Part shown: piece after piece, positions 62,101 to 63,509 of the stretch | How the letters are laid out: every line of letters begins with the position of its first letter | Numbering within the stretch: the stretch's first letter is position 1 | Virus record (IMG/VR): IMGVR_UViG_3300044644_001243 | Span: 1-64,000 of that record | Source: an uncultured virus (IMG/VR IMGVR_UViG_3300044644_001243) | Taxonomy: Duplodnaviria > Heunggongvirae > Uroviricota > Caudoviricetes | Direction: 5' to 3' (one strand) | DNA length: 64,000 bases | The notes under the pieces: generated by a model | The model's input: only the letters and a program-made list of their open reading frames with translations | Told to the model about the DNA's origin: nothing | The model's database searches: none | Made by a program: the position numbers and the translations under genes

Positions 62101-62427
62101 ATGAAAAGTTTTATAAAAAAAAGAATTAGAGAACAAATTAGTTTAGATGAAAAAAATTTAAATTATTCTAATGTTTGTAAAAAAATGACTATTAATTCTT
62201 TTGAAGAAGCCTTTAATAATGTTGAAGAAGCCTTAAAAAACGTTGATAGAATAACTAGGTATAAGATTATGCGAAAAATTTATACACCTTTACATAATTT
62301 AAAACATGAGCAAGATTTAATAGCTAATGAAGTTAAAGAAAAAGGTATGTCTGGTGATTCAATTCCAGATGAAGCTGACACATATTGGCACCAAATACAA
62401 AATATATTTTGTAAAGGTATTTACTAA
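62101..62427 (+). CDS. hypothetical protein, possibly head-packaged
   Basis: MKSFIKKRIRE..SLDE N-terminus. Confidence 0.6.
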   Translation: MKSFIKKRIREQISLDEKNLNYSNVCKKMTINSFEEAFNNVEEALKNVDRITRYKIMRKIYTPLHNLKHEQDLIANEVKEKGMSGDSIPDEADTYWHQIQNIFCKGIY

Positions 62428-62452
62428 AAACATTTTTTCACTATATTTATAA

Positions 62453-62527
62453 ATGTGTTAACTCACGTATTGGTCCCGACCAGAAATGGTTTAGAGCTGT
62501 CAAGGCAGCAAAGGTATCGGTACAATA
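62453..62527 (+). ncRNA. candidate structured RNA leader
   Basis: 50% GC over 62461-62520 in an AT-rich genome; gacca-GAAA-tggtt and gctgt-caag-gcagc hairpins enclosed by tattg..ccga / tcgg..caata. Confidence 0.6.
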
Positions 62528-62553
62528 ATAACAAAAATTAAAAGTTAATTAAA

Positions 62554-63423
62554 ATGTATTTAAATTATTCTGCGGCACAATCTGTGCCTACAGCTAATAT
62601 TGCTGTGAACAAATCAAGACTTAAAGTCTACAACAATACGGGCGATATGCCAACGTATTATCTACAAAAGGGACAAGAGTTCCAAATCGAATTATTTAAT
62701 CCAACAACGGATGTTATTCTGGCTAAAATCATACTTAATGGTAATCCTATTTCACAAGGTGGTTTGGTATTGAACCCTGGCCAAAGAGTATTCTTAGACA
62801 GATACTTAGATGTTGCTAAAAAATTCTTATTTGATACTTATGAAGTTTCAAATACTGAAGAAGTTAAAAAAGCAATCGAAAAGAATGGTGATTTCAAAGT
62901 AGAATTCTACAGAGAAAGAGTTCCTAATTACTTAAACACACTAGCAATAAATAGTAATACTGCTAGAGGTTTTGGTGGAACTATAAACAATACAACAATT
63001 GGTGGGTATGCTTCATCTATACCTAACGGTAGCGTTAATATTACAAACACATCTGGTCATATTGGGTCTACTGCGTTATATACTTCTTCAGTTAGTAATA
63101 GTGTACCAACACTTGATTCAATGAATGATATGTTATCAATGGACGCACCAAAAGAAGCTAATCCAACTAGAACGCTAAAGAGTCGTTCTAAGAGCATAGA
63201 AACTGGTAGAGTAGAGCAAGGTTCAGTTTCTGACCAAAAGGTTGTTACAGTGGATAAAAAGTTTGAATACTGGGCTTTTCACACTATTGAATGTAAAATG
63301 TTACCAGTGTCACAAAAAATAAACACAGTTGAAGATATCAATGTAAAAGTATACTGCACAAACTGTGGTGCTAAATTAGGAAAAGGACACAAGTTTTGTG
63401 GTCAATGCGGCACAAAAGCATAA
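62554..63423 (+). CDS. uncharacterised protein with C-terminal zinc ribbon
   Basis: beta-rich N-domain (EFQIELFNP...GGLVL.PGQRVFLDR), low-complexity S/T/N linker, CTNC...CGQC. Confidence 0.8.
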   Translation: MYLNYSAAQSVPTANIAVNKSRLKVYNNTGDMPTYYLQKGQEFQIELFNPTTDVILAKIILNGNPISQGGLVLNPGQRVFLDRYLDVAKKFLFDTYEVSNTEEVKKAIEKNGDFKVEFYRERVPNYLNTLAINSNTARGFGGTINNTTIGGYASSIPNGSVNITNTSGHIGSTALYTSSVSNSVPTLDSMNDMLSMDAPKEANPTRTLKSRSKSIETGRVEQGSVSDQKVVTVDKKFEYWAFHTIECKMLPVSQKINTVEDINVKVYCTNCGAKLGKGHKFCGQCGTKA

Positions 63424-63451
63424 AATAAATTAACGAGTTAACACATAAATT

Positions 63452-63482
63452 AAAACCGAGGATTTGCATCTTCGGTTTTTTT
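63452..63482 (+). terminator. intrinsic terminator
   Basis: aaaaccgaggat-ttgc-atcttcggttttttt (one G-U pair). Confidence 0.85.
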
Positions 63483-63509
63483 ATTGTACATTAGTTAAAA
63501 AATATTGTT

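Follow-up and report, generated by a model that had tools for sequence, protein, structure and literature searches.

A covarying three-way junction in the leader and complementary ends in the mRNA of an Ig-fold/zinc-ribbon gene of huge phages

Introduction

Autogenous translational operators are exemplified by ribosomal protein leaders and by the operators of genes 32 and 43 of bacteriophage T4. The phage leader described here resembles such operators in being structured, tied to one gene family and shared with a functionally linked gene, and is, in contrast to them, a putative operator. A short helix that joins the 5′ and 3′ UTRs across the whole ORF has been described for the hbs mRNA of Bacillus subtilis (PMC5737220). 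A helix of this kind is likewise present in the phage message; compared with the hbs helix as presented in that report, it shows covariation across many phages, begins at the inferred +1 position and lies next to a conserved junction, and in one clade the phage system has a putative loop-loop counterpart. In the type I toxin mRNAs aapA and hok, as they are portrayed in PMC6733600, a transient pairing of the start region can be replaced by a 5′-3′ long-distance interaction, which is also what we propose for the phage message. The full-length form of those mRNAs is silent, whereas the phage end helix would free the start region. Assignment of the phage transcript to the type I toxin mRNAs was itself rejected, its product being a protein of 289 aa and not a short peptide, and its end helix excluding the start region. 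Structured regulatory RNAs of huge phages have barely been catalogued.

Results and Discussion

The locus and its leader

The window analysed in this study is a stretch of 64,000 nucleotides that makes up the initial half of a virus record, which is linear, 128 kb long and an estimated 38% complete. The phage presumably infects a member of the Bacteroidota, as judged from its relatives, Lak and phages of 460–735 kb. The features of the locus are collected in Table 1.

Table 1. Features of the Ig-fold/zinc-ribbon locus (coordinates refer to the window).
Feature	Position	Strand	Remarks
Promoter element TATATTTATA	62442..62451	+	common to many genes of the phage
5′ arm	62453..62464	+	12 bp with 3′ UTR; weak pairing with start region
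P1, 5′ strand (T helix if a k-junction)	62467..62477	+	conserved wobbles U·G (62470) and G·U (62473)
P2 (C helix)	62478..62491	+	includes G62478·U62491 and A62479-U62490; loop variable
Junction strand UAGA	62492..62495	+	L2, L3, G1b, A2b in the k-junction reading
P3 (NC helix)	62496..62509	+	loop is the putative kissing sequence in one clade
Junction strand AAA	62510..62512	+	A or G at 2n, invariant A at 1n, then one extra base
P1, 3′ strand	62513..62523	+	pairs with 62467–62477
Translation-initiation region, A-rich	62524..62553	+	conserved AAAGUUAA, weak complement of 5′ arm
289-aa ORF	62554..63423	+	predicted Ig-like beta-sandwich, low-confidence linker (~122–213), C-terminal zinc ribbon
3′ arm	63435..63446	+	complement of 5′ arm; just 3′ of stop codon
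Intrinsic-terminator-like hairpin and U tract	63452..63483	+	inverted repeat I7

The promoter element is nearly invariant across 60 homologous leaders, and in many relatives TTGACA-like letters are found approximately 17 nt 5′ of it; transcription is likely to start near position 62453. Another inverted repeat, I6 (62520–62531 with 63478–63489), overlaps P1 and the U tract. The slot 5′ of the promoter is variable, since a 99%-identical relative (L002) differs from the window immediately upstream of the promoter motif. In the window, a 108-aa ORF lies 5′ of the promoter (62101–62427). A conserved upstream gene precedes the gene for the 289-aa family in 90 of 131 loci, and members of an opposite-strand family are found near it in 46 loci; the longest of these members reads, by eye, like a T4-type major capsid protein.

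The preliminary description of this DNA, made without database searches, had singled out the leader for its G/C content and its length, and was correct on both. Thirty of the 60 bases at 62461–62520 are G or C, whereas intergenic DNA has a G+C content of 23.7% and its regions, 114 in all, have a median of 17/60; this is the richest 60-mer among the intergenic stretches of the window. Outside the window, eight stretches at 100–116 kb of the genome reach 30–37 G/C of 60. Several intergenic 60-mers with 28–37 G/C, possibly tRNAs or other structured RNAs, were noted in G000 C1 (100955–128000). From the end of TATTTATA to the ATG the leader measures 102 nt; 19 of 36 such sites lie 3–28 nt from a start codon.

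The three-way junction that had been drawn for this leader is indeed its minimum free energy fold (z −2.43; 4 of 200 shuffles were as good), and the P2 (cca-GAAA-tgg) and P3 (gctgt/gcagc) helices fold as proposed. The outer helices had been placed out of register: the pair probabilities of tattg/caata and ccga/tcgg are 0.009 and 0.003, respectively, and that of the actual P1 (62467–62477 with 62513–62523) is 0.98. The finer details of the proposal did not withstand comparison with homologues. The gacca/tggtc pairing, thought to exclude the hairpin drawn, has a probability of 0.01 or less and all five of its pairs are possible in 8 of 100 homologues, leaving a switch through mutually exclusive local pairings unsupported. 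The GNRA loop is not conserved, GAAA being present within P2 in 13 of 100 homologues, and the 3-bp ccg/cgg pseudoknot draws on P1 bases, its three pairs being possible in 52 of 100 when G-U is included. Any switch would use the 5′ arm, for which both the start region and the 3′ UTR are potential, alternative partners.

A covarying three-way junction

The leader contains a real, uncatalogued three-way junction of 57 nt (62467–62523). In order to follow it through related phages, 60 distinct leaders from 80 IMG/VR loci were aligned, with duplicates, truncated loci and two loci carrying insertions (L021 and L048) left out. The three helices are paired in 95.7% of the cells of this alignment, against 35–49% in slid controls, and 17 of the 20 pairs show two-sided changes. 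With distant phages included (70 cores), 20 of 21 pairs are compensatory, although the rows of this set were excised by a structure-guided parse and are hence biased towards the structure. The preliminary description had suggested a structured cis-element and had named missing covariation as what would speak against it; homologous leaders do covary, in the 60- and the 70-sequence sets alike, and the structured, conserved cis-element is strongly supported. The element is small, covaries strongly and lends itself to tests in vitro.

The same architecture was recovered by the structure-guided parse in 100 distinct cores, obtained from 131 loci after removal of duplicates and of loci with less than 90 nt upstream. 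The order of elements is P1-(G·U)(A-U)-P2, U W G A, P3, R A W, P1. The first junction strand reads U (96 of 100), variable, G (93) and A (100), and the second A (70) or G (29), A (100) and A (94), the figure of 100/100 for the two adenines being partly built into the parse (six of the rows were re-parsed with both adenines required). Both A62511 and A62495 are invariant in plain MAFFT alignments (60/60 and 70/70). The two closing pairs of P2 covary in the 100 cores (G·U 90, C-G 5, G-C 2; A-U 88, G-C 4, U-A 4), so that P1 and P2 can stack directly. Two wobbles of P1 are kept, G·U in 89 and U·G in 85 of 100 cores, and the hairpin loops vary in both length and sequence. In nearly all cores the motif is located 18–42 nt upstream of the start codon. 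Of 98 sources, 91 were matched by model R1, whose training rows account for many of them; L082, L088, L112, L125, L128, L129 and L130 were missed by the model and are recovered by the parse alone. An AT-rich insertion of ~35 nt, forming a hairpin, separates the 5′ arm of L100 from its P1 (upstream of 1893).

An Rfam scan, one of the checks that had been proposed for this leader, matched it to no riboswitch or ribozyme family. There were no matches to Rfam 15 within the window at the gathering threshold; at a loose E-value, the region 62380–62620 gave only sub-threshold, unrelated matches, the DUF3268 model being included in the search, and the leaders of 14 distant loci had no match. No description of the motif was found in the literature; four supplementary files of PMC10690425 contain no match, and the other candidate lists of that study may include the motif. 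This k-junction-like leader is thus absent from Rfam and, while belonging to known kinds of structured leader, is not previously described in the literature found.

Relation to k-junctions

K-junctions organise TPP riboswitches (PMC4005666), and the sequence of the phage junction makes it rather likely that it adopts the same fold. The third helix is on the non-bulged strand, with P2 corresponding to the C, P3 to the NC and P1 to the T helix, and all three helices covary. With the k-junctions of TPP riboswitches and of the DUF-3268 RNA, as these are described in PMC4005666 and PMC10573300, the leader shares the three helices and a four-base L1/L1.1/L2/L3 strand followed by G1b and A2b before the NC helix, as well as near-invariant adenines at 2b and 1n. 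As in TPP k-junctions (PMC4005666, PMC10573300), L1 and L1.1 are paired across in covarying pairs (c1:L1 and c2:L1.1), and as in the DUF-3268 RNA (PMC10573300) there is no insertion between 1b and 2b. L3 is variable (A 64, U 28, G 7 in 100 cores).

Two features fit the described pattern less well. Position 1b is G in 93 and A in 6 of the 100 cores, and 2n is A in 70 and G in 29, where the k-junction pattern has G at both. The prevalence of A at 2n is unlike the solved k-junctions; an A·A pair has been described at 1b·1n for the TPP riboswitch of E. coli and at 2b·2n for Kt-23 (PMC4005666). In addition, one extra base (A in 94 of 100) separates 1n from P1, whereas the solved k-junctions, according to the text of PMC4005666 and the E. 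coli sequence, join 1n directly to the T helix. The T helix of the leader would be the open P1, unlike that of the TPP and DUF-3268 junctions. Since L7Ae did not fold the k-junctions tested in one study (PMC10573300, 2023), a host L7Ae-like protein is not an obvious ligand. If the fold is indeed a k-junction, the leader would be a natural example outside TPP riboswitches, rRNA and the DUF-3268 RNA.

Pairing of the mRNA ends

A feature absent from the preliminary description is that 62453–62464 is the exact complement of 63435–63446. In the full transcript this end helix, which starts at the inferred +1, has a probability of 1.0. The equivalent duplex is at −8 kcal/mol or below in 75 of 97 distinct loci, and in 74 of the 97 it is stronger than 98 or more of 100 shuffles; its mean energy is −14.3 kcal/mol, versus −7.9 across loci and −6.4 for shuffled sequences. 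The arm sequences are wholly different between clades and yet still complementary, those of the main clade having a palindromic core, GTTAAC. Internal mismatches of the arms are G-U over A-C at 13 to 4 (p 0.049), as against 12 to 19 at flanking positions, and the excess of G-U lends modest support to pairing of RNA over pairing of DNA.

A nearby end helix is missing in 22 of the 97 loci, Lak included. For six of these (L009, L015, L031, L035, L044 and L100) the 3′ arm is found 850–1190 nt downstream, behind an antisense ORF of 260–360 aa that is homing-nuclease-like and lies between the stop codon and the arm; in L009, L015 and L031 the end helix may not form, because a terminator-like hairpin follows the stop codon. 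In L081, L082, L084 and L085 (Lak and a 636-kb phage), which are without end helix, a local hairpin over the start codon could be seen by eye after P1. No end helix was seen by eye for the copies of the motif that precede vWA genes (see below).

One clade without a 3′ arm displays a different complementarity, namely that of its P3 loop (UCACGG) to the terminator loop (CCGUGA). A search pattern with this P3 loop fixed retrieved 80 loci, 76 of which have the family gene downstream. The terminator loop is CCGUGA in all 71 loci with a complete 3′ end, on eight different stems, and in none of 104 other 3′ UTRs, where 83 terminators carry 72 different loops. Since these loci are closely related and their two loops do not covary, we only infer that the leader loop kisses the terminator loop in this clade. 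Having two independent ways of joining mRNA ends, one of them putative, would make it directly testable why an mRNA of bacterial type should form a closed loop.

The 5′ arm was also compared with the start region, taken as the AUG and the 17 nt that precede it. In 81 of 93 loci, and in 25 of 30 arm clusters, the pairing of an arm with its own start region is better than the cross-cluster mean, an effect clearest for CCUU arms with AAGG start regions. The mean energy is −4.6 kcal/mol, and the pairing beats 95% of shuffles in 25 of 93 loci. In the RNA of the window the probability of this pairing is 0.06 or less, so an off state would need a stabilising partner.

The Ig-fold/zinc-ribbon protein

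The family of the 289-aa protein comprises 1660 representatives at an E-value of 0.001 or better, including relatives in Lak and in phages of 460–735 kb at 30–39% identity. The predicted model (mean pLDDT 83) consists of a beta-sandwich (residues ~13–121 and 214–251), a low-confidence linker and a zinc ribbon. A wide search of solved structures returned generic Ig folds only (best Z 6.5), the DNA-binding domains of Grainyhead, p53-like and CP2 proteins being among the structural ties (Z 5.7–6.5); Pfam CP2 was detected in 3 of 138 members. Foldseek found no match in the PDB at an E-value of 0.001, PHROG and Pfam no family beyond the zinc ribbon, and sequence searches no solved relatives except zinc fingers. 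Predicted viral structures gave 21 matches at E ≤0.001, mostly to uncharacterised proteins of large eukaryotic DNA viruses, and the Atlas leads, all below 0.9, were NCLDV, SHOCT and DUF7918 clusters. The top match among the predicted viral structures was a SHOCT-bearing phage protein. In L087 and L088 the translation has a SHOCT-like C-terminal tail in place of the zinc ribbon. The invariant or near-invariant residues of the family include K24, R78, R83, K90 and Y96, a conservation compatible with binding of nucleic acid.

A second target gene and natural insertions

In the 735-kb phage LR756501.1, a second copy of the motif (51.9 bits) is located 31 nt before a gene for a vWA-domain protein. 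A metagenome scan using a pattern built from this lineage yielded 26 matches, of which 13 precede Ig-fold genes, 10 precede vWA genes, one precedes a cut ORF and two are due to chance. The ten vWA matches represent about nine distinct leaders, L292 being the same as L303, which ends at a contig end. Contig Ga0268283_1000016 carries both copies, before the Ig-fold and the vWA gene, 145 kb apart. A scan of viral sequences gave 24 matches: 20 before the family gene, two before nuclease insertions into that gene, one before a vWA gene and one cut. The vWA gene is directly 3′ of the Ig-fold gene in 7 of 131 loci, from two lineages, and was not found in any of five close, mostly complete relatives by a search that had no positive control. 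The motif links an orphan Ig-fold protein family to a vWA partner. The same fold before two unrelated genes is probably a shared control element for the production of their proteins, and the constancy of the Ig-fold gene, with the vWA gene as an optional associate under the same motif, is what one would expect to see if autogenous control had been widened to include a partner.

Natural insertions bear on what the motif is needed for. In L021 (1172–1870) and L048 (1047–1862) a GIY-YIG gene has entered the Ig-fold gene at its 5′ end; it has taken over the original leader, and the displaced gene has a new start preceded by a second, diverged motif (56.8 and 45.5 bits, respectively). Nuclease-like insertions in L067 (~1179–2007) and L103 (~485–1315), and also in L102 and L104, bring their own TATATTTATA and a replacement N-terminus. 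There the original leader is now 5′ of a short stub and no second copy of the motif was found at the displaced gene, which implies that the motif is not needed for expression. Being re-supplied in some insertions and yet dispensable for expression, the motif is easier to reconcile with a regulator than with an obligatory enhancer. The original leaders at all these insertions are near-perfect (71.6–78.3 bits), so that a role in trans is conceivable.

How the leader might act

The reading we favour, with a probability of roughly 45%, is that of a translational operator through which a bound protein would exert autogenous control, with the pairing of the mRNA ends as a modulating input. An autoregulatory binding site for a protein had also been among the initial suggestions. 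The leader would fold co-transcriptionally into a compact three-way junction of the k-junction type, with P1 stacked on P2 and P3 kinked back through tandem sheared pairs. The shape of the junction and the two conserved G·U wobbles of P1 would form a binding site, most likely for the downstream Ig-fold protein, which would thereby restrain its own production and, wherever a duplicate of the motif exists, the production of the vWA partner. The 5′ arm may serve as the expression platform: its weak pairing with the bases before the start codon would represent the off state, and once the message is complete its strong pairing with the 3′ UTR would leave the start region free and the ends protected. 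A point against an operator is that the protein has no known RNA-binding domain, its structural matches being generic Ig folds. In a bolder version, which we hold to be rather doubtful, the k-junction leader would be read by the Ig-fold protein together with the vWA protein, and translation would be licensed only when the ends meet, by helix in most clades or by a loop kissing the terminator in another, constituting a completeness checkpoint for a bacterial-type mRNA.

Alternatively, the junction might be an aptamer for a small molecule or ion, controlling two functionally linked genes as a riboswitch with the 5′ arm as its expression platform. That two unrelated genes share one motif, and that it is retained among phages with proteins 30–39% identical, would fit such a role, as would the metal motif of the vWA partner, which we take to be of the DxSxS type. 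The organisation of TPP riboswitches by k-junctions (PMC4005666) also points in this direction. Yet the few conserved unpaired bases are explained by the junction, the two hairpin loops are free to vary, so that no second arm closes a pocket, and no Rfam riboswitch was matched even at a loose E-value. Moreover, a shallow search (35 candidates scored per genome) did not find the motif in 150 other sampled genomes of one bacterial phylum. Taken together, these observations make a riboswitch unlikely.

It is quite unlikely, too, that the element is a device for stability or processing only, in which the junction and the closed ends shield the mRNA from nucleases or mark it for processing without a dedicated regulator. 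The position of the end helix at the inferred +1 and its certainty in the predicted full transcript would be in keeping with this, as would the putative loop-loop contact that takes its place in one clade; in the hbs mRNA, a 14-bp helix that links the 5′ UTR to the 3′ UTR is described as modulating cleavage by RNase Y (PMC5737220). Such a device would leave unexplained the restriction of the motif to the Ig-fold gene and its vWA associate and the conservation of the wobbles, and the junction persists where end pairing is absent.

The near-perfect original leaders at sites where a nuclease gene has displaced the coding part, and the existence of two architectures that join the mRNA ends, might also be expected if the closed-loop transcript or a released leader formed a particle with the Ig-fold and vWA proteins or bound a host factor. 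We regard such a trans-acting or scaffold RNA as improbable: the nuclease insertions may be recent, the distance between motif and start codon is fixed, the motif has been re-supplied in cis in L021 and L048, and no stand-alone copy was found in the phage's own fragment, in five relatives, in LR756501.1 or in the viral and metagenome pattern scans.

The hammerhead ribozyme has a CUGANGA core with a C3-G8 pair and G12 as the general base in GAAA. The GA and RAA strands flanking one helix of the leader recall hammerhead stem II, but a self-cleaving ribozyme, whether of hammerhead-like topology or of a new class (an unrecognised ribozyme had been among the initial suggestions), is very improbable, given that the strand is UUUWGA in the 100 cores, that the C3-like position covaries with its P2 partner (G-C 69, C-G 26 or more of 100), that the would-be G12 is A in 70 of 100, that no Rfam ribozyme is matched and that cleavage would remove the pairing of the arm with the 3′ end. 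Equally remote is the idea that the arms are DNA operators for a looping transcription factor, possibly the Ig-fold protein, for which the palindromic GTTAAC core and the weak likeness of the model to p53, Grainyhead and CP2 folds could be cited: the arms change completely between clades while staying complementary, their internal mismatches, though not the flanking ones, favour G-U over A-C, and the junction would be left unexplained.

Distribution of the motif

Phages with the operator-like leader range from ~360 kb to Lak and the phages of 460–735 kb. One strong copy of the motif is present in the 128-kb fragment studied here, and a single strong copy was likewise found in each of five larger relatives; blanks for additional copies carry little weight, because the stricter copy filters missed even known copies in Lak records and in LR756502.1. 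Three public sequencing runs, in which these phages make up a small share, gave contigs of relatives only. All 13 matches to genome contigs (L119, L121 and L126 among them) come from genomes that are uncultured or assembled from metagenomes and whose labels are unrelated and extend to archaea; they are probably mis-binned phage contigs. In one contig binned as a Firmicutes genome (L123), tmRNA and tRNA genes (1109–1873) are located ~1 kb upstream of the family gene.
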